Of a DNA stretch of 64,000 bases, positions 14,570-44,462 are shown piece by piece. The notes beneath the pieces were generated by a model. It saw only the letters and a list, made by a program, of their open reading frames with translations, was not told the DNA's origin and did not search any database. The first letter of the stretch is position 1; each line of letters opens with the position of its first letter. Source of the DNA: Maricaulaceae bacterium. Its GTDB lineage: Bacteria; Pseudomonadota; Alphaproteobacteria; Caulobacterales; Maricaulaceae. A program made the translations under genes and the position numbers. The stretch lies in contig JBDXGZ010000018.1 of the NCBI GenBank assembly GCA_039989855.1, positions 35,415 to 99,414 on the forward strand, given 5' to 3'.

Positions 14570-14593
14570 ACTTAATGACCGACTAGAGACGCC

Positions 14594-14616
14594 GCCCTGA
14601 TTTATCAGGGCTTTTC
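14594..14616. terminator. Bidirectional stem-loop GCCCTGA-TTTA-TCAGGGC plus T-run between the tRNA and the nadE 3' end
   Basis: 7-bp perfect stem read directly, followed by TTTT. Lies between convergent tRNA-fMet and nadE (stop at 14625). Confidence 0.7.
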
Positions 14617-16336: not shown

Positions 16337-16885
16337 CTATTCAACCGTCGCTTTTTTCGGGGCGTCCCCAGCGATGTGGATGGTGACCTTATCTTCACCC
16401 GCCAATCCCGAGAGTAACGTCCGACCATCTGGCATGAGGCGAAACTCGCCATACTTTGCATCCGCATAGCGCTCCGCCGTGCCTGATTGGAAATAATAGC
16501 GCGCCCCGCCGTAAGTATAACCACCCCAACGTGCGCTCGTTCTCCTGTAGCGAATGAGGCGCTCATTCTCTGCAAGGGTTTCCGCCTCACCCGCAAGACG
16601 GACAAATTTAACAATATCATCACCGTCCAGACGAATAACGGCAAGTCCTTTATCTTTAGGGGCCTTATTATTAGAGCTCTTCGGCAAAGCCTCTCGGTCA
16701 TATCTCAGCGCCATGTAATCCCCGAGAAAAAGGCCCCTGGGGTCAATGGGGCGAAGCTCAATTAAAATACGCTCACCGTTCTGTCTTATGTCTTCGGCCG
16801 CGAGCGTCCCCGATATAAATTTCAACGCGCAAAGCATAACCCCCACCGCAATCAGGCCGTACCGCCATGTTGTTTGCACACTCAT
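16337..16885 (-). CDS. GDYXXLXY-domain protein, membrane-anchored or secreted
   Basis: N-terminal hydrophobic anchor and the literal motif GDYMALRY. The start overlaps the upstream stop by 4 nt. Confidence 0.7.
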   Translation of the reverse strand: MSVQTTWRYGLIAVGVMLCALKFISGTLAAEDIRQNGERILIELRPIDPRGLFLGDYMALRYDREALPKSSNNKAPKDKGLAVIRLDGDDIVKFVRLAGEAETLAENERLIRYRRTSARWGGYTYGGARYYFQSGTAERYADAKYGEFRLMPDGRTLLSGLAGEDKVTIHIAGDAPKKATVE

Positions 16886-29891: not shown

Positions 29892-30707
29892 TTATGACTT
29901 ATCTGCAGGGTCGCTCATTTTTTCGAAATTGGCATCATTTTGCCGAATGGCTGCCTCAAGACGAGCCTCAGCGTCTTGCAGGTTTTTCTTCGGGTCTTGG
30001 TAAAAGGCCGTCAATTTCATGATCTGCAAAAAGGCTTTATTGAGGAACCGTCCCCAGAATTTCATCGGGCGGTCAAAATCAAACAGCAAGATCACCCGCT
30101 CTTCGTCGGTGTCATTCCACACTTCATGCTCATAAGTATCGTCAAAGACAAAGATCTCACCCTCTTTCCATGGGGTGATAGTATCATCAACGCGGATACG
30201 GCACTTCTCGCGGTCTTTCGGGATAATCAAGCCAAGATGCGAACGAAGTATGCCTTTCGTCACGCCCTTATGCGCAGGGATATGATAGCCTGGGGCGAGG
30301 ATAGAAAACATCGCCGTTTGTAAATTCGGGACACTTTCCAAAATATCCGCCGTCTTCGGTGTCAATACCGTGTTTTTCTCAAGCCTCTGTCCAAAGCCGT
30401 AGAGCACAAAGGTCTTCCAATTCTGTTCTGTTGAGAGACGGTATTGATCGGGCGAGATTTCATGGAAGCTCGGGATCGTGTTACGAAATTTTAGCACGTC
30501 CTGCGCCTCATCGCGAATGGTTTCCCAATTATCCGTAAAGATATTTAAGAAATCAAAATGTTCATTGCTGAGCTTAGGCGTATCAGGCACTTGCGATTGA
30601 CGTGTTTGAAAGCTCGCAATTTTACGCACGAGCTTCTTGCCAGTTTTTTTCACAAAAGCCCGGCGAGGATTGTTCAGTTTTTTCGGTTTTTCAACTGCGG
30701 TGGCCAT
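29892..30707 (-). CDS. Aspartyl/asparaginyl beta-hydroxylase-family dioxygenase (LpxO/OlsC-like lipid hydroxylase candidate)
   Basis: HIPAHKGVTKGILRSHLGLIIP and FDDTYEHEVWN motifs of the Fe(II)/2-oxoglutarate Asp/Asn hydroxylase fold. Basic N-terminus. Last gene of the operon. Confidence 0.7.
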   Translation of the reverse strand: MATAVEKPKKLNNPRRAFVKKTGKKLVRKIASFQTRQSQVPDTPKLSNEHFDFLNIFTDNWETIRDEAQDVLKFRNTIPSFHEISPDQYRLSTEQNWKTFVLYGFGQRLEKNTVLTPKTADILESVPNLQTAMFSILAPGYHIPAHKGVTKGILRSHLGLIIPKDREKCRIRVDDTITPWKEGEIFVFDDTYEHEVWNDTDEERVILLFDFDRPMKFWGRFLNKAFLQIMKLTAFYQDPKKNLQDAEARLEAAIRQNDANFEKMSDPADKS

Positions 30708-30722: not shown

Positions 30723-32006
30723 TTAGGCTTTGGTCTTAGGGGCTTTACGCGCGCGTTTTTTGGGCGTCTTCTTTTTTAGAATCTTCGGAGCGGCAATTCG
30801 CGCTTCTACCTCGTGCATATAATCTCGCGATATCGGCAAAGCGTTAACATCTTTCGCGAGTTGGATTTGGAAATTCATATGCTTGCCGTGACGGAACGAA
30901 AATTCTGACACAATCAGGTAAAACTCCCACATGCGTGCAAATTTTTCGTCAAACATTTCAATCACAGAATCGCGGTTCGCTTGGAAGCGCTTATCCCACT
31001 CAAGCAAAGTCTCGGCATAATGAAGTCGAAGGATTTCCGTATCCGTCACCCAAAGCCCTGCCTTTTCAATTTCAGCAAAGGTCTCAGATAGAGCCGGCGA
31101 ATAACCGCCGGGGAAAATATATTTTCTAATCCAAGCGCCCGTTGTGCCCGGCCCGCCCTTGCGGCCAATAGAATGAATAAGCGCGCAACCGTCATCGGTT
31201 AAAAGCTCGCGAATCTTGGAGAAATATTCTTGGTAATGAGCAATACCCACATGTTCGAACATGCCGACGGAGACAACACGGTCAAAGGATTCTGTGAGGG
31301 TCCGGTAATCTTGCAGACGCAAATCAACTTTGTCTTCAAGGCCTAGCTCTTTAACCCGCGCTTTACCGAGGGCTAGTTGCTCGTCGGACAAAGTCACACC
31401 TATAACTTTACAGCCAAAGGTCTGCGCCAGATAAATCGCCATGCCGCCCCAACCGCACCCAATATCGAGGACGAGCATACCCTCGCCCGTTTCAGGTGTA
31501 ATATTAAGCTTGGCCGCAATATGAGCCTTCTTAAGGCGTTGCGCCTCTTCTAGGGAAATATCCAACCTCGGCCAATAGGCGCAGCTATATTGCAAATCTT
31601 CATCTAAAAAGAGGCGGTAAAAATCGTTCGACAGATCATAATGATGCTGCACATTTTTACGAGATGCGCTCTTTTTATTACGCTGATGCCAACGGCGAAT
31701 TTTCTTGAGATAGCCTTTAAGCGCCTTTTGTAACGGATGCCCGCGAAGGCCGCCTCGGTTATGGGCGAAGACCTCTAAGAGATTGCGAATACCGTCTTCG
31801 CAAATCAAGGTCCCATCCATATAGGCCTCACCCGCGCGAAGTTCGGGATTTAGAAACAGGCTTTTATAGAGCGCCTTATCGGTAATTCGAATCGTCGCTT
31901 GCGGCTGTCCGCCGGGGCCGTGAACATGCTTATTGCCGTCGACATCAATGATTGTGAGCTGCCCGACTTTTACAAATTGGGCCATCATGGAATTCAGTAA
32001 TTTCAT
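30723..32006 (-). CDS. Cyclopropane-fatty-acyl-phospholipid synthase-family SAM methyltransferase
   Basis: VLDIGCGWGGMAIYLA SAM motif, HYDLSNDFY and SVGMFEHVG, all typical of the CFA/mycolic-acid methyltransferase family. Unusual Lys-rich tail KKKTPKKRARKAPKTKA. Confidence 0.8.
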   Translation of the reverse strand: MKLLNSMMAQFVKVGQLTIIDVDGNKHVHGPGGQPQATIRITDKALYKSLFLNPELRAGEAYMDGTLICEDGIRNLLEVFAHNRGGLRGHPLQKALKGYLKKIRRWHQRNKKSASRKNVQHHYDLSNDFYRLFLDEDLQYSCAYWPRLDISLEEAQRLKKAHIAAKLNITPETGEGMLVLDIGCGWGGMAIYLAQTFGCKVIGVTLSDEQLALGKARVKELGLEDKVDLRLQDYRTLTESFDRVVSVGMFEHVGIAHYQEYFSKIRELLTDDGCALIHSIGRKGGPGTTGAWIRKYIFPGGYSPALSETFAEIEKAGLWVTDTEILRLHYAETLLEWDKRFQANRDSVIEMFDEKFARMWEFYLIVSEFSFRHGKHMNFQIQLAKDVNALPISRDYMHEVEARIAAPKILKKKTPKKRARKAPKTKA

Positions 32007-32025: not shown

Positions 32026-33627
32026 CTATGCGGAGAGCTTTTGCCCTAAATGATCCCCTAAACGCAAGGCCAAAGCCATAATTGTGACCGTGGGATTGGC
32101 CCACCCCCCCGTTGGGAAAACACCACTACTGGCAACATAGAGGTTTGGGCTCTCAAAAAGCTTACAATTGGCGTCAACAACGCCCGTTTGGTCGCTGTCG
32201 CCCATACGAACGCCGCCCATATGGTGATAACCACCGATAGGGTGAGCAGAGATTAGCTTATCCGTTCGCCATGTCACATTTTCGTCAGATAGCCATTTGG
32301 ACGGAATAACCTCTCCCCAACCCAGACGCTTATATTCATCCGCTAAAGTCTCCATCAGAACTCTGACGCTATGACGATCAATATCAAGAAGCTGCCAATC
32401 AAGTTGCGCGCGACGCACACCGAACGCGTCGGTCGCCTCGCCAAGCACAATACGACTATCAGGGTTCGGAGCTTGCTCCGCGCGAACAACCGCAAAGACG
32501 CCGAGTTTCTCGCCCTGCAATTTCATAGCGAGCATGGTCGATTTCGGGTCTGTCTTCTCAAGCCCTTTGATCGCAAGGCCTTTGGCGCGTTTGTAAAGCG
32601 TTCGCCAGAACTTGCTCGACGGTAGGCTATGTTTCAACCCATGAGTCAGGCGGTTGTGCATTTCCATACTCTCTCCGGCACGGCGACGCGCGGCAAAGCT
32701 AATAGACGTGTTGAGAATACCTTCTTTACGTTGAAGGTCTGGAGCGGGACGCATATAGGCGGCGTAGCGCTTACCCTCGACCCGCAGCGCGCGCGGTAGA
32801 ACCGTCAAAGCATGAGCGAGATCGTTTGGAATAATTTCACCGCCGCGCGCATGAGGGTGCTCCATAAAGAAGCGGCCTAAAATATCGTTATCATTACCTA
32901 TACCGTTTGGGCGGCTTGGCACGGCGGCCATTAAAATACGCGCCGATTCAATCGCGCCTGCGGCGACAACAAAGCAGCGGGCGACAACTCGCACTGTTTT
33001 ATCATTTAGAGCTTTAGCCGTTAAACCCGTGACCTCACCTTGTTCAGACACATCAATATCTGTGACCGTGGCGCCAAGTAATATATCGGCCACGTCTAAT
33101 CCATCGCGTGAAAGGTTGGTAAACCGTTCCCCGTTTTCATCAAACACCCATAGGTCTGTGTCGAGTTTCTTAGGATCAAATTCAGGGGCTTCGCGGTCCA
33201 CCACAGGCCAGAGACGGCCTTCTCCAGGACGCTTCAACCCAAGAGACGCAAAAGCTGCGTCGTAATAGGGATCAAGCTCTGACTTTGGAAAGGGCCAGCC
33301 ACTATGAGGGAGATAATCACGCTTTTCAAAATCAATCGGATCAAGCTCCGCACAGCGCCCGCCCCAAATCGCCGCCGTCCCGCCAAACAAGCGCAAGCGA
33401 GAGCTTTCAAGCGGGTAATAGTCTTCGCCGATATTTTCGCCCTGTGCGAGGGTTTGGATATCTTTACGAAAGTCACGCTCTCCGCTCTCAAGAATTAAAG
33501 TCTTGAGATTATAACGAGAAAGTTGTTGCGCCAACGTCTGCCCTGCTACACCGCCGCCGATAATACATATATCAACGTCGAGCTGAGATGGTAGGTCAGA
33601 ATTTAAAAGTGAAGTACGTAGAGCCAC
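32026..33627 (-). CDS. GMC-family FAD-dependent oxidoreductase
   Basis: DICIIGGGVAGQTLA dinucleotide fold. C-terminal HPIGGYHMGG...VVDANCKLFESPNLYVASSGVFPTGG GMC_oxred_C-type motif. GTG start. Confidence 0.8.
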   Translation of the reverse strand: MALRTSLLNSDLPSQLDVDICIIGGGVAGQTLAQQLSRYNLKTLILESGERDFRKDIQTLAQGENIGEDYYPLESSRLRLFGGTAAIWGGRCAELDPIDFEKRDYLPHSGWPFPKSELDPYYDAAFASLGLKRPGEGRLWPVVDREAPEFDPKKLDTDLWVFDENGERFTNLSRDGLDVADILLGATVTDIDVSEQGEVTGLTAKALNDKTVRVVARCFVVAAGAIESARILMAAVPSRPNGIGNDNDILGRFFMEHPHARGGEIIPNDLAHALTVLPRALRVEGKRYAAYMRPAPDLQRKEGILNTSISFAARRRAGESMEMHNRLTHGLKHSLPSSKFWRTLYKRAKGLAIKGLEKTDPKSTMLAMKLQGEKLGVFAVVRAEQAPNPDSRIVLGEATDAFGVRRAQLDWQLLDIDRHSVRVLMETLADEYKRLGWGEVIPSKWLSDENVTWRTDKLISAHPIGGYHHMGGVRMGDSDQTGVVDANCKLFESPNLYVASSGVFPTGGWANPTVTIMALALRLGDHLGQKLSA

Positions 33628-33650: not shown

Positions 33651-34406
33651 TTAAACTACAGAAAAGCGCTTACGCGTTTGTTCTTCTCCACCGAAAATCT
33701 CGCGGCAAACTTCATAATCTTCCGGTGTATCAAGCTCAGCCCACTGGAAGCCCTTAATCAAGGTTGTGTTAATCTCAACACCGCTTTTTGCCAACCCGTG
33801 AATAGCCGATAAATACCAACTTTTGGTTCCATCTTTCGTCCGCATTAACCGTTCTAATTCATCTGTGAAAATCTTAGGTCCATCGCCCATAAAGCGGAGC
33901 ATACCTATCGATTCACCGTTTGTCGCGTCCGCGGACAATGTCTTACCAATCGCCGTTAGCTGACGACCCTCAAGGGTAACCTTCATGTCATCGCCGTCAT
34001 AATAATCTTTTTTATCAATCGTCACAGCAATATCTGATTGCGGTGCATCCAGCACTTTGCGGATAATATTTGGGCTAAAAAGTGTGTCGCCATTTATAAT
34101 GAGGAAGTCTTGTACCATAGATTTACGTACCATCCAGCAAGAGGCTAGATTATCCGCGACTTGGTAGAAGGGATTAAACAATGTCGTAACCTCTGGGCCT
34201 TTTTGACGGCTGGCAAGTTCAGCCTCAACTAAATGCGAATTAAACCCTGTAACAATCGTCGCCGTCTTCACGCCTGCCGCATATAAAGTATCCAGCTGCA
34301 TCCCTAACACCGTCGTGAGACCGATGGGTAGAAGACATTTAGGGAGATCCGTTGTAAGGGGTAATAACCGGGACCCTCGTCCGGCACTTAGAATAATTGC
34401 GTGCAT
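33651..34406 (-). CDS. Sugar/alcohol-phosphate nucleotidyltransferase (LicC / IPCT-like)
   Basis: MHAIILSAGRGSRLLPLTTDLPKCLLPI is the G-x-G-(S/T)-R signature of the NTP_transferase fold. 251 aa. Confidence 0.75.
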   Translation of the reverse strand: MHAIILSAGRGSRLLPLTTDLPKCLLPIGLTTVLGMQLDTLYAAGVKTATIVTGFNSHLVEAELASRQKGPEVTTLFNPFYQVADNLASCWMVRKSMVQDFLIINGDTLFSPNIIRKVLDAPQSDIAVTIDKKDYYDGDDMKVTLEGRQLTAIGKTLSADATNGESIGMLRFMGDGPKIFTDELERLMRTKDGTKSWYLSAIHGLAKSGVEINTTLIKGFQWAELDTPEDYEVCREIFGGEEQTRKRFSVV

Positions 34407-34430
34407 TGTTTAACTCTCTTTTTTACAATA

Positions 34431-35129
34431 TTACCAATGACTTATGCGCCACCCTTCTTCTGACGCATGTTGTGATAGTTTCCTATCAGGATGTATGGCA
34501 ACACATACATTAGCAAGACGAAACATCGCAAGGTCAGAATAGCTATCAGAGTAAAACGTTATATTTGTGATATATTGTTTCAAAACAGGGTTTTCATCTA
34601 TTAAACTATTGAAACAATCTACTTTTTGACCGCCGTAACAATTCGGCGTATTGAAGTTTGATTTCAATATATTACAATCATCGAACCCCATTTCAGTTGA
34701 AATCACATAATCAAACTTAAGTAGCTCTCCAATAGGTTCCGCAATAACATCAACGGCGGCGCTAATCATAACAAGAATATCGCCTTGGTCGCGGTGCATT
34801 TTAACAGCCTCTAAAGCCCCTGGACGCAGTCCATTCGCAAATTCTCTTTGCGCAAATAACTGACCTTTTGAGAAAAGCTTATCCCGAGACGCGCCGGCCA
34901 TAGCCCAACACATCATCTTTCGTTTTACATCCACTCTAGGGCAGAGCCCGCGCTTATATTTCCACTGCGTCCATCCGGCCGACAACAAAAGCGGCAACCA
35001 AATATGAGGGCGAAACTTTACCCAACTCCAAACAAACCGCCCCCATGTCCCGCGCTTGGTCAGTGTGTAGTCGAGGTCAAATACGGCCAACCCTGGTGTT
35101 ACCTCATCGGTGAGACTCGCACTCATCAC
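34431..35129 (-). CDS. HAD-IB family phosphatase
   Basis: FDLDYTLT (DxDxT) motif I and SDSYSDL motif IV, with a cap-sized insertion. 4-nt overlap with the upstream gene. Confidence 0.7.
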   Translation of the reverse strand: MMSASLTDEVTPGLAVFDLDYTLTKRGTWGRFVWSWVKFRPHIWLPLLLSAGWTQWKYKRGLCPRVDVKRKMMCWAMAGASRDKLFSKGQLFAQREFANGLRPGALEAVKMHRDQGDILVMISAAVDVIAEPIGELLKFDYVISTEMGFDDCNILKSNFNTPNCYGGQKVDCFNSLIDENPVLKQYITNITFYSDSYSDLAMFRLANVCVAIHPDRKLSQHASEEGWRISHW

Positions 35130-36235
35130 TTAGAGTCCATCCATGATTGGATTTTTCCACGTCTCAAGAATCCAACACAGACCACAGCAACATTAAAGGC
35201 GATACACACCCATGTCCAAATAGCGACCGTGTAAAAGCCCCAACGGCCTGCTTCGGGCCAGATGCCCATCAACATAATAGCGATCATGAAAATAAACGTA
35301 TTCGGGTTACGGCGCGCAATGATAAACCGCAAAGCCGAATTTATTGGTCGCCACACATGGATATGAAACCCGTGTTGAGCAATAAAGATACCTTCAACAA
35401 TACGGTCAACCACATAGCCGACTAAAATCGCCACAAGCGCAAATGCCATCAGATCCGTCGTGATATTCGGCCAGACAAATACTCCACCGAGCCCGACAAA
35501 CCAGGCCCAATACCAAAAGGGTGGGTGAATGAGATCAATGCCGTGGTCATAGACATTCCCCCATTTAGAGAAAGTCATGGTCGTGCGCGCAAGTTTCCCG
35601 TCCACAGTATCTAAAAAGGTCATGAACCAACCCGTAACAAAGCCTAACGCCCACTGTCCTTGCAAAAAGAAATAAAAGGCCGCCACCGTCATAACTAGGC
35701 TCAGCGTCGTGACCATATTGGGCGTAATGCGTAAATTGGCGCAAAAGCGCGTGGCGTAAAAGGCTGGAACGGGCCAAAAGAATTTAGTTACGAAATCAGT
35801 GATACCCTTATAGGAGCCTGCAAATTGCTGCTTCATAATCACGTCAGGCGACGTGGTACGAACATCAAGCGCATACGGCGCTTCTGTTTTACGCAAGGCT
35901 TTATCATAGGAAGACACTAATTGATCGGGTCGAGCCGTGCGTAAATCCTCAGCCGCAGACGCGGGCCGTCCCAACATGTCTTTATGCCCGCCCGAAACAC
36001 CGATAATGTGACCGTCAACGATCAGCGCAACATTATCACTTTGTGCAAAGGCTTTTAGGAGATTATTGGACAAGACGAAATGTGCATCTAGAAAATGAGA
36101 CACGTCTTGACCATTTTGAGACAACGACAGACCGAATTTTTTATAGGCTCGGGCTTGCCATTCTAGCACCTCAAGCCCCCAGAGCTTCGCCGTGGGCGTC
36201 CCAACAAGATGGATATGACGTACTATGTTTGACAC
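35126..36235 (-). CDS. CDP-alcohol phosphatidyltransferase-family enzyme with ~150-aa soluble N-terminal extension
   Basis: Complete signature DTVDGKLARTTMTFSKWGNVYDHGIDLIHP (D-x2-D-G-x2-A-R-x8-G-x3-D-x3-D) inside a multi-TM C-terminal half. 369 aa, far longer than a PgsA-type enzyme. Confidence 0.8.
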   Translation of the reverse strand: MSNIVRHIHLVGTPTAKLWGLEVLEWQARAYKKFGLSLSQNGQDVSHFLDAHFVLSNNLLKAFAQSDNVALIVDGHIIGVSGGHKDMLGRPASAAEDLRTARPDQLVSSYDKALRKTEAPYALDVRTTSPDVIMKQQFAGSYKGITDFVTKFFWPVPAFYATRFCANLRITPNMVTTLSLVMTVAAFYFFLQGQWALGFVTGWFMTFLDTVDGKLARTTMTFSKWGNVYDHGIDLIHPPFWYWAWFVGLGGVFVWPNITTDLMAFALVAILVGYVVDRIVEGIFIAQHGFHIHVWRPINSALRFIIARRNPNTFIFMIAIMLMGIWPEAGRWGFYTVAIWTWVCIAFNVAVVCVGFLRRGKIQSWMDSK

Positions 36236-36236
36236 T

Positions 36237-37607
36237 TTATTCCTTAAATTTCACACGTTGCTTTAAAGTATGCTTAGCCATAATCGTGACAATAATAACT
36301 GTAAAAAGATTTCCAACGAAAACCGCCCATGCCGCAGACATAGGGCCGACGGCCTTGGCCATTGCAAACAGTGCTACCAAATAGACAATCACTCCTGCGC
36401 CCCTCGCAATAATCGCTCGTTCTGGATGATCGGCTGCAAAAAATATAGGATATAGCGGGGCGGCAGCACCCATAAGCGCTGCGGCGGGAACTAAAATCAT
36501 GGCTATAGGCACAGCAGGTTCAAACCCTTCCCTAGCAATTAAGAGCAAGATATTTTCACCAAACACAAAAAACACGCCTGACATAAAGCAGCCAAACAAA
36601 AATAAGATAGCCGCCGCACGCGTCGTTAATTTCCAAATTTTTTCCACTTTTCCTTCGGTCACCATACGCGCTAATTCTGGATATATTACCTGATCGAGGA
36701 GTTTAAACCCTTCCGAGAGAAGCTTAGCAATTTCTTCAGCGATTTTGTAAATTCCGTTCCAAACAGGGCCAAAGATAGCAAATACAAGTAAATTAGGCAG
36801 ATGCACCGTCGCGGCGCCTAAGGTCGAATCAATGTTGGATTTAATAACAAAACTCCAAAGCCCTTTGCGCTTAGGTTTAAAAAAATTGATCTTGGCTTTA
36901 AAGACTGACTTTAATAAATGTCGCCGTTTTAATTCCCGTAAGGCCATAAATGGTAAGAATATATAGGCCGCTAGAGAGCCACAGAACCACGCGAGTAAAA
37001 AGCCCTCAAAGCCCGCATTTGTTACCACGGCTGTCACCGCCCCGATAAAGCGCACAACTGGCATGACGACCGCTTTAACGGCAAGAACATTAAATTGATC
37101 AAATAAACGGAAAACGCCAATAGACGCACCGCGTTGCCTCAGCAGCACCAATATACAATAAAGCGCCGCGTAATTTCGAACATCTTCTAAAGTAAACTTT
37201 TCACCTAAATTTATTCCATCGCCATAATTTTGCCCCATCCAGACTGAAAAGCTGAACAATGCGATCGCTAAAACATACGCAAAAACCGCAGAAATAGCAT
37301 CCAGCTTAATCCCAAAATTAATCAACTTACTCAGCTTAGAGCTATCTTTATTGTGCAGATCATCAGTTCCGTAACGAATAATCGCTTGCCAAGATTGAAA
37401 GGCCGTCACTTCTGAAAAAAATGACATATAACCATGAAGGAAAACCAGAACGCCAAACTCAGTTGGGGTCAGAAACTTTGTCCCCAAACTGAAGCTACCT
37501 AAGCCGACGATCACCCCTAAAAACTTCGACCCCACCATAAGGCCGCCGTTCTTTGCGATACGTTTTTGCCGAGAGTGTTTAGAATTCACCGATAGATCAG
37601 GGCTCAT
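36237..37607 (-). CDS. MOP/Wzx-type polytopic flippase-like membrane protein
   Basis: 456 aa with ~12-14 hydrophobic helices and the polysaccharide-biosynthesis (Polysacc_synt) type of layout. 1-nt gap and 4-nt overlap with its neighbours. Confidence 0.65.
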   Translation of the reverse strand: MSPDLSVNSKHSRQKRIAKNGGLMVGSKFLGVIVGLGSFSLGTKFLTPTEFGVLVFLHGYMSFFSEVTAFQSWQAIIRYGTDDLHNKDSSKLSKLINFGIKLDAISAVFAYVLAIALFSFSVWMGQNYGDGINLGEKFTLEDVRNYAALYCILVLLRQRGASIGVFRLFDQFNVLAVKAVVMPVVRFIGAVTAVVTNAGFEGFLLAWFCGSLAAYIFLPFMALRELKRRHLLKSVFKAKINFFKPKRKGLWSFVIKSNIDSTLGAATVHLPNLLVFAIFGPVWNGIYKIAEEIAKLLSEGFKLLDQVIYPELARMVTEGKVEKIWKLTTRAAAILFLFGCFMSGVFFVFGENILLLIAREGFEPAVPIAMILVPAAALMGAAAPLYPIFFAADHPERAIIARGAGVIVYLVALFAMAKAVGPMSAAWAVFVGNLFTVIIVTIMAKHTLKQRVKFKE

Positions 37608-38383
37608 GACGTCTCTCGCTTTATTGACCGCTCTGCCTCTTTGATCAGTATCTGCTCAACCAATATACGGTCCGAGGGCTTATCGACATCAATCGCGGCT
37701 TCAGGGACCGACATCAGTACAGGGGCCGCTGTAATGCCGAGAGTTTTGGACGCATAAGCCAAGGCTCCGTCCAAGGTTAACTTACCACGCCAATAGCGCC
37801 AAAATAGCGGCAAGCTAATTTTACGCGCTAATTTTAAAGGCTGCTTTCTAAAATGCTGTGCGTCTTTCCAAAATTCAATCGCGGCAAGGCCTCGCTCATT
37901 AGCAATGTAAAAAAGATTGCATCCCGAAACGGCATGGTCAGCAAAGCGTAAATAGGTCCGCTTTACATGCGGGTATGCCGGGTGGATAATCGTCTCTTCG
38001 GCCAGACCGAGACAAAAATCAGCATCCGTAGCTTGGGATTTTTCGATAAATTCTCTAATCATATCCGCCGTTAAAAGCGGATGGTCGGCGGTGGTCATTA
38101 GCACGGGAAATGACATGCCGTGGCTCAAGGCGGCGAGCGCACTACCAGCAGGGCCGGCCTCAGACGGAGCTTGCGTCAACCGCTTATCAACACTGGCGGG
38201 GCAACCGCTAATATGAAACGGCTCCTTTAGAGCCGCCGCATCCAACGCATCCACAACATAACTCAACATAGGACGCCCCAAAATTGGGACTAACGCTTTT
38301 CGCGGCTCACCTGTATCAGCGCAAAGCGGGTCGACAACACCCTCACGTTGTCCTGCCAATATAAGAACATTAACGGATGTCAC
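37604..38383 (-). CDS. MobA-like (NTP_transf_3) nucleotidyltransferase-family protein
   Basis: VLILAGQREG...ALVPILGRPML N-terminal nucleotide-binding loop and MTTADHPLL. 259 aa. Confidence 0.6.
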   Translation of the reverse strand: MTSVNVLILAGQREGVVDPLCADTGEPRKALVPILGRPMLSYVVDALDAAALKEPFHISGCPASVDKRLTQAPSEAGPAGSALAALSHGMSFPVLMTTADHPLLTADMIREFIEKSQATDADFCLGLAEETIIHPAYPHVKRTYLRFADHAVSGCNLFYIANERGLAAIEFWKDAQHFRKQPLKLARKISLPLFWRYWRGKLTLDGALAYASKTLGITAAPVLMSVPEAAIDVDKPSDRILVEQILIKEAERSIKRETS

Positions 38384-39531
38384 GCGCTCAACACCTTTTC
38401 ATACATGCGGTAGGTCTTATAAAGTTTTGCGTCCGCTTGCTCACATATGCCCCGCATGCCTTTATTATCTTCTAATATCCAAGACAGTTCGCACATATCG
38501 TAGCCTTGGGCCGCCCCCGCTTTGAACACATCTTCGCAAATACGGCACAGAGCGGCAAGACCGCGCTTTGTATTTTGATGCTCTTTCCTCAGCCCCATCA
38601 AAGGGATGCGGGCCGACTTGATTTTCTTACCCTTCAAGCGCGCGATGAGTTTCGCCCAACCAAAGGGCCATAATCGACCATCGAGGTCACGGGTCGCCTC
38701 ATTAATATTGGGGATCATCCAAATGAAGGCCGCTGGCTCCCCGTCAATCATGGCGAGGCGGTAACCTTCTTTAAAGATAATCGGCTTTAGCTCTTTGGCT
38801 GTATGGGCAATTTGTTCATCCGTTAGCGGCACAAAACCCCAATTATCAGACCACGCATCATTAAAAATCGACATCGCTAAATTAACTTCATCTATGAATT
38901 TTGTGGGATCCAACGTGCGAAAGCTAATCCCTGCATCACGCTCAACGATTTTGTTTAGGCGGCGCATAAACGGCCCCGGTGTAAAGCCTTCTGCTAAATC
39001 CGCACGGTAAGCCAAGAGGTCAATCGCTTTTTCAAGGCCTGCGCCTTCAATCATGTCTATATAGTCAGGACGACCGTAAGGCATCATCAACACATTGGGA
39101 TGCTCAAATCCGTCAATCAACAGACCACTTTCCTCATTCACGCTATGATTAGACGGGCCAATCATTTTACGTGCGCCCTTGGCCCGTAGCCAGTCCTCCG
39201 CTCGCTTTAATAAAGCCGCGCCCGTTTCCGCCTGCGCTTCGCAATCAAAATAGCCGAAATGCCCAGCTTCGTCATTATAGCGCTCGCGGTGATGAGGATT
39301 AAGGAAGGCCGCAATACGGCCCACAACCACATCGCCGCGTTTGGCAATAAACAACTGACGCTCAAGATGGGCCGCGTTCGGGTTTTTAATCTGAGAAATT
39401 TGATCAGCGCGCTCAAAGCGGAGCGGCGGATGCCACGTCGCCTGTCCACGGTATAGACCGTAAGGCACATCCAGAAAGGATTTAAGCTGCGCTTTATCCT
39501 GATCATTGATAGGTAAAATATTGACCGACAC
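38380..39531 (-). CDS. Two-lobed GNAT-like N-acyltransferase (candidate bacterial ceramide synthase-type enzyme)
   Basis: 383 aa. C-terminal lobe RIPLMGLRKEHQNTKRGLAALCRICEDV resembles the GNAT acyl-CoA binding segment. GTG start with an AGGAAAAGG RBS. First gene of the operon. Confidence 0.5.
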   Translation of the reverse strand: MSVNILPINDQDKAQLKSFLDVPYGLYRGQATWHPPLRFERADQISQIKNPNAAHLERQLFIAKRGDVVVGRIAAFLNPHHRERYNDEAGHFGYFDCEAQAETGAALLKRAEDWLRAKGARKMIGPSNHSVNEESGLLIDGFEHPNVLMMPYGRPDYIDMIEGAGLEKAIDLLAYRADLAEGFTPGPFMRRLNKIVERDAGISFRTLDPTKFIDEVNLAMSIFNDAWSDNWGFVPLTDEQIAHTAKELKPIIFKEGYRLAMIDGEPAAFIWMIPNINEATRDLDGRLWPFGWAKLIARLKGKKIKSARIPLMGLRKEHQNTKRGLAALCRICEDVFKAGAAQGYDMCELSWILEDNKGMRGICEQADAKLYKTYRMYEKVLSA

Positions 39532-39613: not shown

Positions 39614-40159
39614 TTAAGATTTCTTCTTTTTACTTTTGCCAACTTTTTGGAAGAAGATCTCAATATCCGTGCCCTTTTCTCCCACATTAAAAGCGGCGTC
39701 GTTAAATTTCGGCAACTTCTTCTTATATTCTGGGTTGTTTGACAGGCCGTACGGCTCTTTCGGGGTGAAGTCCCACTTTTGCTTCAACTTCCGGTTTCCG
39801 TCTAAATCGTGATAGCCTGCTACCGCATACATTCCCGCCTTCGGCACATTAATACAGACCACCATCGGGCTATCTTTGGCTTCAACGCGCACACGGTGCA
39901 ACCGGCCTTTTTTATATAAAAACCCATCTTTACTATTATAAAGCTCAAGCTTTAAAATACCTTCCGCGTGGATATTATGCGCTGTGACACGAATTTGAGT
40001 CGTATCCGCTACACATTCATCGGCCGCGTCACGTTCATAAAGCTCTAAAGTTGGATGCACCACAGGCCCATAATCTTCATCAGCTCCCGCTAGAACGGAA
40101 CCGTTCACATACAGTAGAAGTGCGACAAACATTAAGCCTTTGATAGATATGAACTTCAT
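39614..40159 (-). CDS. DUF2141-like secreted protein
   Basis: Signal peptide. GYHDLDGNRKL...PKEPYGLSNNP resembles the DUF2141 signature. Lys-rich tail GKSKKKKS. 82 nt upstream of the operon on the same strand. Confidence 0.6.
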   Translation of the reverse strand: MKFISIKGLMFVALLLYVNGSVLAGADEDYGPVVHPTLELYERDAADECVADTTQIRVTAHNIHAEGILKLELYNSKDGFLYKKGRLHRVRVEAKDSPMVVCINVPKAGMYAVAGYHDLDGNRKLKQKWDFTPKEPYGLSNNPEYKKKLPKFNDAAFNVGEKGTDIEIFFQKVGKSKKKKS

Positions 40160-40178
40160 AATTGCCTTTATGGTGTTA

Positions 40179-40192
40179 ATTCCCTAGGGAAT
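40179..40192. promoter_or_regulatory. Perfect 14-bp palindrome ATTCCCTAGGGAAT in the divergent DUF2141 / lptF intergenic region
   Basis: Read directly. It lies 20 nt from the DUF2141 start codon and 67 nt from the lptF start codon. Confidence 0.3.
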
Positions 40193-40258
40193 GCCTTAAA
40201 TTATTATACAATATGGTCATCGACCGCGAAAAGTAAACTTACGATTGTTACACTTACA

Positions 40259-41464
40259 ATGAACCGCCTGAACAGATACTTAATGAAAAACGCTTTAACC
40301 AGCATTGGTGGCCTCATTGTCTTCGCGATTGTGGTTCTTTTGCTTGAACGGCTATTACGAATTTTTCAAGTTATTACTAACTCGACTCAACCCGCATTAG
40401 ATGCTGGATCAATGATCGTCTTTCTCCTCCCGCACTATCTCGGCATTGCCGTTCCAATGGCTTTGCTTTTAGGGATCATCATTACAATTGACCGTTTTAG
40501 TCGATCCAGTGAGCTAACCGCCGCCTACGGCGCAGGCATATCACTGTTCCATATTACTAAACCCTTCATTTTAATTGCCGTAATATTAGCAAGCACCACG
40601 GTATTTATTGAAGGATATATGCAACCCATCGGGCGCTACAATTACCGACAGGTCGAACATAATGTGAAACAACAATCCTTTGCGGCGATTCTCCGTGAAG
40701 GGACATTTACCGAAGTCGGCAACCGCATGTTTTATGCAGGCACCGAAAAACCAGGCAAAGCCATTGGACCTATTTTTATCTATGAACAAGTAAAGGATAA
40801 AACAGACGCAATATCACTTCGCATCACAACCGCCGAAGAAGGTCAGCTCATCATCAGAGAGGAAACAGGGGAGCCCGTCCTACAATTGGCTGAAGGGCAA
40901 GGTTATCGTATTTTAGACAAAACCCGCTTAAGAGGCGACCTATCCTTTGAAAGCAGTTCTGTCGCAGGAACCGCAGAGGTAACACAATTTCGACCACGCG
41001 GTGACGATGAGCGTGAACTGACCTCTCTTGAACTTATAAAAAACCGTGATGGGAGCGTCTATACGACCGTCAGTCCTGATGTAAATAATGCGGCCCTCCA
41101 CCTACGAATTGCACGAGCGACTCTTTTATTAATCATACCCTTTATTGCGGTCCCTTTTGGATTGAACTATGGTCGCAACCCATCATCGACTGGGCTTTTT
41201 GTCGGTGTGGTTATGCTCGTGTCTTGCCAAAAGGCGTTAGAGTTTGGGCAAAGCCTTGGGGCAAAAAACATCTTACCCGCATGGGCCGGCGTTTGGTTTG
41301 TCATTTTAATTGTCGCCATTTTTGCCTTTTACATCTTCACCAAGAGTGCTTTCAAAATGGGGCAGCCTCCCTTGACGTCGATAAATATGGGCATCAAAAA
41401 TATGAAAATGGCAATGTCAGGTCGCATCAAACGACTTCGTCGCGCATGGGTAGAGTTGAAATAA
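40259..41464 (+). CDS. lptF: LPS export ABC transporter permease, YjgP/YjgQ family
   Basis: LNRYLMKNAL start, three plus three TM segments flanking a large periplasmic domain. TAATG junction with its paralogue. Confidence 0.75.
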   Translation: MNRLNRYLMKNALTSIGGLIVFAIVVLLLERLLRIFQVITNSTQPALDAGSMIVFLLPHYLGIAVPMALLLGIIITIDRFSRSSELTAAYGAGISLFHITKPFILIAVILASTTVFIEGYMQPIGRYNYRQVEHNVKQQSFAAILREGTFTEVGNRMFYAGTEKPGKAIGPIFIYEQVKDKTDAISLRITTAEEGQLIIREETGEPVLQLAEGQGYRILDKTRLRGDLSFESSSVAGTAEVTQFRPRGDDERELTSLELIKNRDGSVYTTVSPDVNNAALHLRIARATLLLIIPFIAVPFGLNYGRNPSSTGLFVGVVMLVSCQKALEFGQSLGAKNILPAWAGVWFVILIVAIFAFYIFTKSAFKMGQPPLTSINMGIKNMKMAMSGRIKRLRRAWVELK

Positions 41465-42549
41465 TGTATAAAATTTTCACCTATTTATCTGGAAGCTATA
41501 TCCGTATTTGGCTGACCACCGTTTTTGGTTTCCTTGTACTTATTGGGCTACTGGATTCACTCGCCAACGGCGGAGATATTATCGGCAATGGCGGCCAATT
41601 CACAGATACGTTTAAATATATGGCCTACCGTGCACCTGTCATTTTTGATAGAATTTTTGTCTTCACTCTCGTGGTCGCAATCTTGCTTTTATTTGTCAAA
41701 CTTATCAGGCAGCATGAATTAGTCGCGCTTTTAGGATTTGGCATATCCGCCCCCAAACAGCTTATGCTTCTCACACCTGTTGTTGTCGGCGCAGCACTTG
41801 TCTCTATTACAATCATCAATACAGCCATGCCGCAGTCAGTTCGGGCCCTACAAGCGTGGGGTATCGGCGAATATAAAATTAAAAACATCTCACCCGAAAA
41901 CCCTTTATGGTTCGAAGATAACCGCGAAATCGTCCGCGCCTCTTTACGTTTTGGAATGGATGATCTGGGAAATATCGAAATTTTTTCACGTGAAATTGAC
42001 GGCCGCATAAATAGCTACATAATTGCCAACCGTGCGACATATGATTTTGACGCCCAGCATTGGAAACTAACAGGTGTTAAGCAATTAGATATTGCCAGTG
42101 CCGACGGGCGACCTGTGAATGCCAAATCTGTGAATGAACCACTCGTTTGGAATTCTGCACAAAACCCTGAGTCCATTGCTCGACTTGCAGCCGAACCAAG
42201 AGACCTCGATTTAACGGACATGAAAACATTTAGCGAAAAAGGTAATTCGGGCAGTAAGCCACGCTTTGCTTATGAGTTTTGGTATCTACACCGTTTAACG
42301 CGTCCAATTGCGGCCTTTATACTGCTACTTTGTGCCGTGCCAATCATGCAACGCGTAAGACGACAGGATACGGGCGATAAGGCCCTCATTATCGGTATTA
42401 GTATGGGTTTTATCTTCCTCATTATTGACGGCGCATTAGCCACATTTGCGACAACTGGCGGCATGACCGTGTTGACAGCTATTATATCGCCTCTGATACT
42501 CTTTGGTTTGATAGGAACTTATCTCTGTCTTCAAACGGAAACTCTATAG
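41464..42549 (+). CDS. lptG: LPS export ABC transporter permease, YjgP/YjgQ family
   Basis: ATG 41464 (MYKIFTYLSGSYIRIWL) shares one nucleotide with the lptF stop codon. Same three-plus-three TM layout. The ORF extension back to 41224 was rejected. Confidence 0.75.
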   Translation: MYKIFTYLSGSYIRIWLTTVFGFLVLIGLLDSLANGGDIIGNGGQFTDTFKYMAYRAPVIFDRIFVFTLVVAILLLFVKLIRQHELVALLGFGISAPKQLMLLTPVVVGAALVSITIINTAMPQSVRALQAWGIGEYKIKNISPENPLWFEDNREIVRASLRFGMDDLGNIEIFSREIDGRINSYIIANRATYDFDAQHWKLTGVKQLDIASADGRPVNAKSVNEPLVWNSAQNPESIARLAAEPRDLDLTDMKTFSEKGNSGSKPRFAYEFWYLHRLTRPIAAFILLLCAVPIMQRVRRQDTGDKALIIGISMGFIFLIIDGALATFATTGGMTVLTAIISPLILFGLIGTYLCLQTETL

Positions 42550-42561
42550 CGAGCGGCCCTT

Positions 42562-43512
42562 ATGACCGATCGTATAATATTTTTCTCCAATTCAAAAAGC
42601 CAAGGCGTTCGCCGCAAAGGCAGTCGATTACTCGCCTTTTACACAGCCCATAAAACTAAAAAGTACATCTATACTGATGATCCAGCTGCACTGTTACAAA
42701 TCGAGTTTACGGCGCAAGACCATCTCTTTATCGAAGGTGGTGACGGGACCTTACAAAAGACTATCACAGGCTTGCTCAATTCGCTCACCGATATTGCTCA
42801 CTGTCCGAAACTCTCAATCGTAGCAGGCGGATTGACCAATCAAATCGCGGCCAATATTGGCCTTAAAGCGAAACAAGACGCAGACATAAATGACGCCATA
42901 ATCGCACCGCAAAGAGGGTTGCGCCCAACACCCATCCTCAAGCTCGACTATATGGGGACCCAATCCCAATATGGCTGCCTGTTTTCAACAGGGGCCTTGC
43001 CATTCGTTACAGATTATTATGAACAGAAAATCCGCGCCAACCCGACAGGCGGAACATCTGGAATCGTAACGACATTGATTAAGGCTGTGTCGGGCAACCA
43101 AGCGGCAAGGGATAAATTGATGCCGGCTACAGAACTTGAACTTGTCTTGAGAAACGGCAAGCAAGAGATATTGAAAACAGGGGCGCATCTCGGCACTATC
43201 GTAACAACCCTACCGTCACTTATGATGGGGCTTGATCCGTTTTGGGGTCAAGGCGAAGGAGATTTGCGCGTCCTTTATGCGGATGGGCGCGCACGGCGTT
43301 TAGTCCGTAATCTGACAGGGGTTTGGTTGGGGCGTAAGTCCATTGACCGCTCAGCCGACGGGCTTGAAAGCTTTCAAAGTGATAGGCTCACCTATCATTA
43401 TAACGGTCCCAAAATTCTCGACGGGGAGAAACTCGAGACGGGAGAAAATAATGGCCCTCTCACCATCAGCGCAACACCGCCCTTGCCCTTTGTTGCAACA
43501 CCCAAGTCATGA
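42562..43512 (+). CDS. DAGK-catalytic-fold lipid kinase (diacylglycerol/sphingosine/ceramide kinase superfamily)
   Basis: FIEGGDGTLQKTITGL (GGDGT signature) and IVAGGLTNQIAANIGL (the GT-x-N segment). 12 nt after lptG. Confidence 0.6.
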   Translation: MTDRIIFFSNSKSQGVRRKGSRLLAFYTAHKTKKYIYTDDPAALLQIEFTAQDHLFIEGGDGTLQKTITGLLNSLTDIAHCPKLSIVAGGLTNQIAANIGLKAKQDADINDAIIAPQRGLRPTPILKLDYMGTQSQYGCLFSTGALPFVTDYYEQKIRANPTGGTSGIVTTLIKAVSGNQAARDKLMPATELELVLRNGKQEILKTGAHLGTIVTTLPSLMMGLDPFWGQGEGDLRVLYADGRARRLVRNLTGVWLGRKSIDRSADGLESFQSDRLTYHYNGPKILDGEKLETGENNGPLTISATPPLPFVATPKS

Positions 43513-44462
43513 CGGACCCCTCTCAAGTTATCACTGACATTAAAACCGTGCTCTCTACGGAGACCGCTATTGCCAGTGCGCGGATTGAAAAAACCTGCAC
43601 CGATATTGCAGAGGCCCACGCGAGCTCCCAAGGTAGCCATGTGCTAGGGTTTCTATATTACGGCTCTTCTTTACGGGACGTCGATGACGCCTCAAAAATG
43701 CTAGATTTCTACGTCATCGTTGATAGCTATAAGACAGTTCACAAAGGTCGCCCTGTTCGGCAAATCATCAATCGTTACCTTCCGCCTGTGGTCTATTATT
43801 ATGAGCGCGAAGACGCGGACGGCACCCTGACGACCTGTAAATATTCACTGATTTCCCTACCTGAATTTGAGCGGCGCTGTGGAAGCTCAGCCTTCTTATC
43901 CATCATCTGGGGCCGCTTTTCTCAGCCGAGCTTATTATATTTTCCCAAAGATGAAACGATTGAAAATAAAATCCTCACCGCACGCGCTAACGCTGTCTTA
44001 CATGTCGCCCGTTGCACCGAAGGTTTATTTAACCACGCACCGACGTTTATAGAATTTTGGGCGCGCGGCTTTCGTGAAAGCTACCGCACAGAATTGCGCC
44101 CTGAAAGCTCCGAGGCACGGTCTCGGGAAATCGTCGCCAAATATTCCGATCGTTATGAAAAATTGATGCAGACCATTTACGGCGCGCCCAATGAAGAGGC
44201 GGCATATGCTCTTCCGACATCGTCAAGCCGATCAAAAGCGGCGCGGCAATGGTTCCTTCGCCGCCTCATGGGGCGACCGATAACGGCCATACGCGTGCTG
44301 TGTAGTGCGGCCACTTTTGACGGCGGCCTTGACTATGTCTTGCGCAAAATCGAGCGGCACTCGGGCGTGACCCTTGAGCCGAGCCCGTTTCAACGCAAGC
44401 ACCCCGTTCTTTGCGCTCCCGTACTTGGGTGGAAGCTTTGGCGCAAAGGCGCGTTCGGCTAG
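43509..44462 (+). CDS. Tam41/Mmp37-like nucleotidyltransferase (candidate CDP-lipid synthase)
   Basis: FLYYGSSL...MLDFYVIVD...VVYYYE...TCKYSLISL...IWGRFSQPSLL follows the pattern I recall for the Mmp37/Tam41 phosphatidate cytidylyltransferase family. ATGA overlap with the kinase gene. Confidence 0.5.
   Translation: MTDPSQVITDIKTVLSTETAIASARIEKTCTDIAEAHASSQGSHVLGFLYYGSSLRDVDDASKMLDFYVIVDSYKTVHKGRPVRQIINRYLPPVVYYYEREDADGTLTTCKYSLISLPEFERRCGSSAFLSIIWGRFSQPSLLYFPKDETIENKILTARANAVLHVARCTEGLFNHAPTFIEFWARGFRESYRTELRPESSEARSREIVAKYSDRYEKLMQTIYGAPNEEAAYALPTSSSRSKAARQWFLRRLMGRPITAIRVLCSAATFDGGLDYVLRKIERHSGVTLEPSPFQRKHPVLCAPVLGWKLWRKGAFG

Follow-up and report, generated by a model that had tools for sequence, protein, structure and literature searches.

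A predicted sphingolipid head-group, flipping and anchor gene cluster in an uncultured Maricaulaceae bacterium, orthologous to the Caulobacter CC_1152-CC_1168 locus

Genes at the locus and their counterparts in Caulobacter

A 64-kb stretch of DNA from an uncultured marine Maricaulaceae bacterium (64,000 nucleotides, contig JBDXGZ010000018.1; the whole stretch is referred to as the window) carries a cluster of six genes. An earlier note, made from the sequence alone, had described these as a module for activating, transferring and flipping the head group of an undescribed polar lipid. All six open reading frames (ORFs) were confirmed on the minus strand at 33651-39531, with coordinates exactly as first described. 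The labels include the orthologs detailed below.

38380-39531, minus strand: GNAT-like protein, bCerS ortholog, 383 aa
37604-38383, minus strand: MobA-like nucleotidyltransferase, CC_1153 ortholog, 259 aa
36237-37607, minus strand: MOP flippase-like protein, CC_1166 ortholog, 456 aa
35126-36235, minus strand: CDP-alcohol transferase, CpgA ortholog, 369 aa
34431-35129, minus strand: HAD-IB phosphatase, 232 aa
33651-34406, minus strand: LicC-like nucleotidyltransferase (NT251), CpgD ortholog, 251 aa

Base-by-base reading confirmed the coordinates and all gene junctions. Overlaps of 4 nt join the GNAT-like to the MobA-like gene (GTGA), the MobA-like to the MOP gene (ATGA) and the transferase to the HAD gene (GTGA). 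The MOP and transferase genes are separated by a 1-nt gap (TAA-A-GTG), the HAD and NT251 genes by 24 nt that include a sequence resembling a ribosome-binding site (AAGAGAG). For the HAD gene, NCBI uses an ATG one codon downstream, which yields 231 aa and reduces the overlap with cpgA to 1 nt (TGATG). Pfam and NCBIfam matches support the MobA-like, CDP-alcohol transferase, HAD-IB and NTP-transferase labels. The limits first given for the cluster proved too narrow: the co-directional array runs on to 29892, and functionally linked genes lie further out, at 39614-44462 and 4168-8409. A scan for promoters and terminators found sites no more numerous than in shuffled sequence and did not delimit the operon.

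The proteins of the window were compared with a Caulobacter locus (L043) by reciprocal best BLASTP. Five of the six cluster genes were matched, the HAD gene being the exception. The matches, including those to neighbouring genes, are as follows.

NT251: CC_1152 (CCNA_01210, CpgD), 50% identity, E=5e-74
MobA259 (MobA-like): CC_1153 (CCNA_01211), 39% identity
GNAT383 (GNAT-like): CC_1154 (CCNA_01212, bCerS), 42% over 382 aa, E=1e-92
LptG: CC_1155, 22% identity
LptF: CC_1156, 30% identity
CDPOH369 (transferase): CC_1159 (CCNA_01217, CpgA), 42%, E=6e-88
DAGK316 (kinase): CC_1160 (CpgB), 27% identity
hyp317 (hypothetical): CC_1161 (CpgC), 32%, E=5e-36
MOP456 (MOP): CC_1166 (CCNA_01224), 27%, E=2e-52

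Gene order and domains of L043 agree item by item with the published C. crescentus locus CC_1152-CC_1168 (CCNA_01210-01226). The published order is nucleotidyltransferase, MobA-like, GNAT, LptG, LptF, HIT, Metallophos, transferase, kinase, hypothetical, spt, acp, reductase, acyl-ACP synthetase, MOP, CC_1167-like (PMC11324152 S1 Text, Fig 4 legend). The products of this locus are ceramide phosphoglycerate (CPG) and ceramide diphosphoglycerate (CPG2) (PMC9393093, PMC11324152, PMC12275187). CpgB is a ceramide kinase, formation of CPG depends on CpgC, and that of CPG2 from CPG on CpgA; higher-order phosphoglycerate polymers could not be excluded by Zik et al. (PMC9393093). CPG2 requires both CC_1152 and CC_1153, and CC_1158 contributes (PMC11324152). 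CC_1166 was proposed to be a flippase, and CC_1155, CC_1156 and CC_1168 were proposed to be LptG2, LptF2 and LptC2, respectively (PMC11324152).

Shared between window and Caulobacter are one-to-one orthologs of CpgA-D, CC_1153, bCerS, LptF2/G2, CC_1166 and Spt/AcpR/CerR/AasR. The catalytic motif is likewise conserved in CpgA, as are the contact residues in CpgD. The arrangement differs. In the window, the flippase gene is wedged between the CC_1153-like gene and cpgA, the ceramide core operon is 25 kb away, and a HAD-IB gene takes the place of the Metallophos gene CC_1158. The window also has genes for a DUF2141 protein, a GMC oxidoreductase, a cyclopropane-fatty-acid (CFA)-synthase-like protein and an OlsC/LpxO-like protein.

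A survey of one genome per GTDB species found relatives of the transferase in at least 596 species, including Caulobacter, Phenylobacterium, Azospirillum, Variovorax, Hydrocarboniphaga, Nitrotoga and a metagenome-assembled genome of Verrucomicrobiia. A transferase with 100% identity is annotated in a metagenome-assembled genome of Maricaulaceae; in view of this match, Zymomonas, at which GC content and a GFO-like gene had hinted, was dismissed as the source. Full-length homologs that include the N-terminal extension are known from Hyphomonas, Henriciella, Hellea, Fretibacter and Parvularcula. Synteny was counted by tblastn of window proteins against the 80 best loci, each from a different species, with a partner accepted when located within 10 kb of the transferase. 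Counted in this way, the partners are the LptF-like permease (67/80), the MobA-like nucleotidyltransferase (64/80), the 317-aa CpgC-like hypothetical protein (64/80), the LicC-like (CpgD-like) nucleotidyltransferase (62/80), the GNAT-like (bCerS-like) protein (61/80), the LptG-like permease (55/80), the DAGK-fold, CpgB-like kinase (51/80), the MOP protein (40/80), the DUF2141 protein (37/80; 37-41 over two counts) and the HAD protein (29/80). Orthologs of cpgA, cpgB, cpgC and cpgD are all present and are clustered in 51-64 of the 80 loci. The co-occurrence persists even where gene order is wholly rearranged, which argues for functional linkage rather than chance. The gene spt lies near the transferase gene in 53 of the 80 loci, in addition to being encoded in the same window.

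Judged by orthology, the region is very probably the sphingolipid head-group, flipping and anchor operon of this Maricaulaceae bacterium, orthologous to CC_1152-CC_1168, with its components as assigned here. The functional category proposed in the earlier note, a lipid head-group module rather than an O-antigen or capsule locus, is thereby retained. Glycosyltransferase, polymerase and chain-length determinant are all absent, as had been claimed (checked over 27.5-47 kb), and the orthologous clusters are not embedded in polysaccharide loci devoid of spt.

Head-group activation, ceramide anchor and flipping

NT251 matches the Pfam family NTP_transferase (E=1.4e-12). Its counterpart CpgD (CCNA_01210) is a Mg-dependent CTP:phosphoglycerate cytidylyltransferase, the product of which, CDP-glycerate, is the presumed donor for CpgA (PMC12275187). 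The residues of CpgD that contact CTP, Mg and glycerate have been defined by crystal structures (PMC13228409). NT251 was aligned to Caulobacter orthologs numbered as in the crystal structure and compared via the published residue list. It keeps 9 of the 11 contacts (G12, R16, K26, N90, N110, G111, D112, S170 and W201). Among these, the glycerate contacts N90, N110 and S170 are identical, which supports phosphoglycerate as the substrate. NT251 is thus predicted to be the CTP:phosphoglycerate cytidylyltransferase CpgD. The alcohol phosphate, which had been left open in the earlier note, would be phosphoglycerate by CpgD orthology and the conserved glycerate contacts.

The MobA/CofC-like protein matches Pfam NTP_transf_3 (E=8e-14), and its nearest solved structure, that of TTHA0179 (2dpw), represents an uncharacterised protein. 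The need for two different nucleotidyltransferases had been considered an open question. The genetic need for both has already been shown in Caulobacter (CC_1152 and CC_1153; PMC11324152).

Pairs of a LicC-like nucleotidyltransferase and a CDP-alcohol transferase occur also in phosphonate biosynthesis via phosphoenolpyruvate mutase and in inositol routes. This candidate was rejected, the window having neither a phosphoenolpyruvate mutase nor a myo-inositol-phosphate synthase. Its sole inositol-related gene codes for an ordinary SuhB-type monophosphatase and is 20 kb away.

The transferase matches CDP-OH_P_transf (PF01066, E=1.6e-10, 42 bits versus a cutoff of 22). The motif D-x2-D-G-x2-A-R-x8-G-x3-D-x3-D is indeed complete, as first noted (D209-D234), and is invariant across 19 homologs. 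An AlphaFold model of the protein (pLDDT 85, pTM 0.80) was compared by Foldseek and matched AF2299, A. fulgidus IPCT-DIPPS and PIP synthase constructs over ~370-385 columns (E=6e-8 to 1e-6, TM ~0.55-0.65). The matched PIP synthase crystal constructs presumably carry the N-terminal domain of AF2299. The N-terminal extension of ~150 residues had been considered unusual; by the Foldseek result it corresponds to the known cytosolic domain of AF2299/IPCT-DIPPS. The domain is devoid of the GxGxR nucleotide-binding signature. Scores are low against the NCBIfam equivalogs for AIP synthase (45 versus 180 bits), PIP synthase (42 versus 170) and IPCT-DIPPS (33 versus 580). Because it stays far under the cutoffs for PgsA-like proteins, PIP synthase and DIPPS, the protein is not considered a housekeeping enzyme, and it does not group with PgsA, PssA or Pcs.

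The resemblance to IPCT/DIPPS logic, with activation by CTP followed by transfer through a CDP-alcohol-family enzyme, was recognized correctly: the transferase is related to those families, yet lies outside their equivalogs. In the archaeal CDP-inositol pathway (IPCT/DIPPS and AF2299; 4mnd, 4o6m), a COG1213-type cytidylyltransferase also makes the CDP-alcohol, which is consumed by a transferase with a cytosolic N-terminal domain, and CpgA superimposes on these structures over its full length. In that pathway, a phosphatase completes the product, DIP. The systems differ in three respects. Sequence identity with CpgA is only 12-16%, the product is a soluble solute rather than a membrane lipid, and the cytidylyltransferase is fused to the transferase in IPCT-DIPPS, whereas it is encoded by a separate gene in the window.

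For the first protein of the cluster, the label of a GNAT-like acyltransferase holds in part. There is weak GNAT similarity, but the Pfam match is sub-threshold (E=5e-3, 17.5 bits versus a cutoff of 20.7), and the Caulobacter ortholog is bCerS (CC_1154), the bacterial ceramide synthase (PMC11324152 S1 Text). The protein is predicted to be bCerS, which would build the ceramide anchor and would not acylate the head group. The other ceramide genes form the distant core operon. The operon has Pfam matches, and each of its genes is a reciprocal best BLASTP match to the Caulobacter gene, with the identity given.

4168-5961, plus strand: aasR, 43.5%
5980-6879, plus strand: cerR, 33%
6926-7171, plus strand: acpR, 39%
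7186-8409, plus strand: spt, 48%

The product of spt scores above the NCBIfam equivalog cutoff for serine palmitoyltransferase (540 versus 500 bits). All five ceramide genes (spt, acpR, cerR, aasR and bCerS) are thus inside the window. A ceramide-based acceptor, which was among the options of the earlier note, is favored by spt and the accompanying ceramide genes together with the bCerS ortholog.

The description as a wholly undescribed polar lipid, with a GNAT enzyme acylating the head group and possibly diacylglycerol or a glycan as acceptor, has become barely credible. It is true that no curated family model names the GNAT-like, flippase and CpgC-like proteins, and that the top NCBIfam matches of the transferase are the PIP and AIP synthases, far under their cutoffs. 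Against this stand the reciprocal best matches of five of the six genes to the Caulobacter CPG2 locus, the synteny over 80 species, the orthology of the GNAT-like protein to bCerS and the ceramide genes in the window, with spt within 10 kb of the transferase gene in 53 of the 80 loci. In addition, the products are already published: the orthologous Caulobacter locus is known to make CPG and CPG2 (published 2022-2026).

On the plus strand, the following genes complete the set that is predicted to act on the ceramide.

40259-42549, plus strand: LptF2/LptG2-like permeases, CC_1156/CC_1155 orthologs, PF03739
42562-43512, plus strand: CpgB ortholog, DAGK-fold ceramide kinase, DAGK_cat E=2e-7
43509-44462, plus strand: CpgC ortholog; its counterpart is needed to turn ceramide-1-phosphate into CPG

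The CpgC-like protein had no match in a Pfam scan and no meaningful match in a search of PDB sequences. The permeases remain below the NCBIfam equivalog cutoffs for LptF (208 versus 230 bits) and LptG (167 versus 240 bits). In Caulobacter, LptF2 assembles with LptG2 into a complex, the two bind LptB, and their deletion is possible only in the absence of CPG2 synthesis (bioRxiv 10.64898/2026.04.12.717747). In the window, the longest ORF for lptG shares ~240 nt with lptF, so that lptG probably starts further downstream.

The MOP protein of the window had no match in a Pfam scan or in a profile search of PDB sequences. Among its homologs, 9 of 26 match Polysacc_synt (PF01943), 6 of 26 Polysacc_synt_3 (PF13440) and 1 of 26 MurJ. 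Its AlphaFold model (pLDDT 86, pTM 0.84) finds WzxE, MurJ and MATE proteins by Foldseek with probability 1.0 (TM 0.65-0.76). Homolog profiles and fold therefore sustain the label of a MOP/Wzx-like flippase, though a Pfam match of its own is lacking.

Every oversized CpgA homolog from both protein searches consists of an N-terminal MOP domain and a C-terminal CpgA domain. These fusions, which include P0146, P0150, P0182, P0184, P0193 and P0202, form at least 15 clusters at 90% identity. They had been suspected to be HAD fusions and proved to be flippase fusions. In the complete genome of Litorimonas sp. WD9-15, flippase and CpgA are encoded in one uninterrupted frame (L016:8612-11119); in the window, the two genes are 1 nt apart. 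The C-terminus of MOP proteins is cytoplasmic, as is the N-terminal domain of AF2299-type enzymes, so that the fusion makes sense topologically. Such fusions are evidence of the Rosetta-stone type for joint action of the CC_1166-type protein and CpgA. They appear to be unreported so far, and a 2026 transport preprint leaves CC_1166 unexamined (bioRxiv 10.64898/2026.04.12.717747). We nominate the CC_1166 family, and with it the MOP protein, as the putative dedicated flippase for the sphingolipid, acting together with CpgA in a complex. The MOP protein shares with Wzx and MurJ (WzxE 9g9n, MurJ 6nc6) the fold and, in its homologs, the Polysacc_synt profile matches. It differs in its presumed cargo, a phosphosphingolipid rather than an undecaprenyl-PP-linked glycan, and in that some CC_1166-type members are fused to the enzyme making the cargo.

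Alternatively, the cluster might attach a phospho-alcohol to lipopolysaccharide (LPS), to lipid A or to a polysaccharide of the surface, in which case LptFG would export LPS in the ordinary way and the MOP protein would be a Wzx for an oligosaccharide. The adjacent lptF/lptG and LpxO-like hydroxylase genes are compatible with this, as are the names that the MOP protein bears in some sources ('lipopolysaccharide biosynthesis protein', 'O-antigen/teichoic acid export membrane protein'). We nevertheless regard it as highly unlikely. The locus is devoid of a glycosyltransferase, a polymerase and an initiating transferase, and relatives of the MOP protein are fused to CpgA. Furthermore, LptF and LptG stay under the housekeeping cutoffs and are orthologous to the sphingolipid-dedicated LptF2/G2, and the hydroxylase scores higher as OlsC than as LpxO while being below both cutoffs.

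The phosphatase, the extended operon and the predicted product

The HAD-IB protein matches PF12710 (E=5e-24) and TIGR01488 (66 versus a cutoff of 45 bits), and is just under the cutoff of TIGR01490 (92.5 versus 98.3). Both motif I (DLDYT) and motif IV (SDSYSD) are preserved. Its nearest solved structure is that of an uncharacterised protein. All homologs stand alone, are ~225 aa long, come from this one marine clade and bear generic names only; fusions to CpgA or CpgD were not encountered among the homologs searched. In all 29 loci with a HAD gene, this is directly 3' of cpgA, at a distance of -18 to +130 nt.

Caulobacter-type loci carry CC_1158 (PF00149, E=8e-15). The Metallophos gene was found by unlabelled clustering of all ORFs, followed by a Pfam rescan. 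This clustering merged the HAD and DAGK families via over-extended ORFs, and the presence of HAD was taken from tblastn. Among the loci with enough flanking sequence, 39 have only the Metallophos gene and 20 only the HAD gene; none has both and 2 have neither. The Metallophos gene is directly 5' of cpgA and divergent in 25 loci and is found 2.3-3.9 kb downstream in ~13 more. On a neighbour-joining tree of CpgA, which is a crude tree, the state switches at least three times. This mutual exclusivity appears to be unreported so far.

CC_1158 is non-essential in Caulobacter and is reported to be absent from all six other genomes compared (H. neptunium, S. wittichii, Z. mobilis, N. eutropha, A. vinelandii and P. 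luteola). Hence, it is not a core defining feature of the locus type. The H. neptunium cluster HNE_1578-HNE_1594 (Olea-Ozuna et al. 2024, Fig 7, S2A Table) is described as orthologous to the Caulobacter locus (PMC11324152), and CPG and CPG2 were predicted for this species. Like the window, it lacks CC_1158 and has the order cpgD-[gap]-cpgA. It differs from the window by keeping HIT between cpgA and the CC_1153 ortholog and spt directly after cpgC. The published ortholog table omits HNE_1580, located between CpgD (HNE_1579) and CpgA (HNE_1581), and also HNE_1585, so that the HAD and DUF2141 genes are not discussed there. In Hyphomonas sp. L029, a strain other than the published ATCC 15444, a HAD gene sits between cpgD and cpgA; DUF2141 is found between bCerS and lptF2, as in the window. 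The literature searched contains no mention of HNE_1580, nor of a HAD enzyme in connection with bacterial sphingolipids. We propose that the HAD-IB protein is a non-orthologous displacement of the pathway phosphoesterase CC_1158.

In the case of PIPS and DIPPS, the acceptor is phosphorylated and a phosphatase has to act afterwards. The conservation of a phosphoesterase, even though the simplest CpgA reaction needs none, hints at chemistry of the PGP/PIP/DIPP type or at a nucleoside-diphosphate (NDP)-capped scheme. The latter was sketched by Olea-Ozuna et al. That CpgA follows either of these more closely than the simplest reaction is only a tentative suggestion.

Three more genes follow 3' of cpgD, with gaps of 23, 19 and 15 nt.

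32026-33627, minus strand: GMC oxidoreductase (Pfam/NCBIfam)
30723-32006, minus strand: CFA-synthase-like methyltransferase (CMAS), 536 bits, just under the cutoff of 600 for the Brucella CFA synthase
29892-30707, minus strand: OlsC/LpxO-like acyl 2-hydroxylase (OlsC 223 bits, LpxO 143, both below cutoffs)

In this position after cpgD, the hydroxylase is found in 16, CMAS in 8 and GMC in 4 of the 80 loci. It is plausible that the three proteins are tailoring enzymes for the lipid tail or the head group. Such an extension of the operon appears to be unreported so far.

Taken together, the pathway would run as follows. Spt, AcpR, AasR, bCerS and CerR would build the ceramide, as is established in Caulobacter and assigned here by orthology. 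The second step, involving the CpgB kinase, was shown biochemically in Caulobacter, and CpgC would be needed for the first addition of glycerate (genetic evidence). CpgD would convert CTP and 2- or 3-phosphoglycerate to CDP-glycerate, in line with Caulobacter biochemistry and crystallography. From this, CpgA would move phosphoglycerate to CPG at the cytoplasmic face, yielding CPG2, as genetics suggest. The CC_1153-like nucleotidyltransferase would also be required, as it is by genetics in Caulobacter. HAD-IB would replace CC_1158 and most likely strip a phosphate or a nucleotide remnant off a CPG2 precursor. The MOP protein would flip the finished lipid to the periplasmic leaflet, from which LptF2/G2 with LptB would extract it for transport to the outer membrane (Caulobacter preprint). 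The OlsC/LpxO-like hydroxylase and the CFA-synthase-like enzyme would probably tailor the acyl chains.

For the marine Maricaulales/Hyphomonadaceae, these elements can be joined into one reading, which we advance with considerable reserve. HAD-IB would be a finishing phosphatase, trimming a phosphorylated or nucleotide-capped CpgA intermediate in the manner of PgsA, PIP synthase or DIPPS pathways. The phosphoesterase step would be near-universal though non-orthologous, a flippase-CpgA complex would channel the lipid, and the tails may be 2-hydroxylated or carry cyclopropane rings.

A related possibility, which we rate slightly lower still and as rather unlikely, is that the same machinery in HAD-type marine loci makes a distinct phosphosphingolipid. 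Candidates are a ceramide-phospho-X made via a HAD-dephosphorylated intermediate (PGP/PIP/DIPP logic), a longer poly(phosphoglycerate), a GMC-oxidised head group, and 2-hydroxylated or cyclopropanated tails. The GMC, CMAS-like and OlsC/LpxO-like genes that prolong the operon point in this direction, and so does the HAD-IB gene, which stands in place of Metallophos and is translationally coupled to cpgA. The HIT and CC_1167-like genes are absent from the window locus, and PIPS and DIPPS, which rely on phosphorylated acceptors and a later phosphatase, are the nearest structural relatives of the transferase. Higher phosphoglycerate polymers were not ruled out by Zik et al. (PMC9393093). On the other hand, the glycerate contacts of CpgD are kept, all core cpg genes are orthologous, CPG and CPG2 were predicted by Olea-Ozuna et al. 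for H. neptunium, which is of the HAD type, and GMC is found in only 4 of the 80 loci.

The reading of the region as a CPG/CPG2-type sphingolipid operon with a HAD-IB phosphatase has several points weighing against it. The assignment rests on orthology at 22-50% identity, and the roles of CpgA, CpgC and CC_1153 are genetic, even in Caulobacter. In NT251, residues that contact the cytosine are changed (T88A, T93S), as in most non-Caulobacter orthologs. The lptFG pair is locus-linked and orthologous to CC_1156/1155; seen from this one window, it may be a second pair or the sole pair of the genome. No HIT protein (CC_1157), Metallophos protein (CC_1158), CC_1167-like transferase or lptC2 was found within the 64-kb window, and the genes for HAD, GMC, the CMAS-like protein and the hydroxylase are additions to the locus; given these losses and gains, the final head group or tail could differ from CPG2. 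With respect to the phosphatase, the HAD/Metallophos exclusivity is largely clade-structured. Moreover, CC_1158 is reportedly missing from S. wittichii and N. eutropha, and no HAD gene is seen between the consecutively numbered cluster genes of these species. Finally, the simplest CpgA reaction (CDP-glycerate and CPG) needs no phosphatase, which leaves the role of HAD unexplained there.

Anionic sphingolipids such as CPG2 can partly replace LPS in the outer membrane and govern polymyxin sensitivity in Caulobacter. The CPG/CPG2 pathway came to light as recently as 2022. What is added here is not a new lipid class; rather, the complete sphingolipid regulon is now seen in an uncultured marine Maricaulaceae bacterium. 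The systematic presence of HAD-IB next to cpgA in Metallophos's stead argues that the hydrolytic step is conserved and a real part of head-group assembly. From the hydroxylase and CFA-synthase-like genes of the operon, tail modifications specific to the clade are predicted. Two questions about the pathway can be approached by direct tests through the mutual exclusivity of HAD and Metallophos and through the fusions of synthase and flippase.

Accessory genes and other features of the window

One more gene lies between bCerS and the permeases.

39614-40159, minus strand: DUF2141 protein, PF09912 E=4e-26, hydrophobic signal/TM segment at residues 3-24

DUF2141 genes are also found at L043:8482-8973 and L029:6963-7448. 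The family is absent from C. crescentus and, therefore, unstudied in the literature. lptC2 is reported to be restricted to Caulobacter, and given this restriction, the DUF2141 protein may serve the transport system as a partner in the periplasm.

A HIT-motif protein (CC_1157) is encoded at the locus in 51 of the 80 genomes, e.g., at L029:9459-9932 (minus strand) and L043:7981-8838 (minus strand), and is absent at the window locus. In the literature, it is called 'probably unrelated'. HIT orthologs are numbered beside cpgD in S. wittichii (Swit_1308/1309) and N. eutropha (Neut_0267/0268), and in S. wittichii also beside cpgA (Swit_1307). This distribution suggests that the HIT protein belongs to the sphingolipid pathway.

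Other features of the window are the following.

48103-49767, minus strand: AbiU-type abortive-infection gene (PADLOC PDLC02357 E=2e-63, Pfam AIPR)
11761-14007: 7TMR-DISM sensor histidine kinase
14493-14569: tRNA-Met, the only tRNA of the window
16337-18867, minus strand: GDYXXLXY protein and fused DUF2157-DUF4401 membrane protein

The AbiU-type gene is in an island with a GC content of 0.36 (~48-50 kb), between a yciB/ispA-like gene and trpA. It is probably a horizontally acquired single-gene defence insertion. The histidine kinase and unannotated ORFs make up a low-GC block (0.37-0.41) at ~10000-14600, which adjoins the tRNA gene and may be a tRNA-associated genomic island. The GDYXXLXY protein and its neighbour, the fused DUF2157-DUF4401 protein, are a conserved pair.

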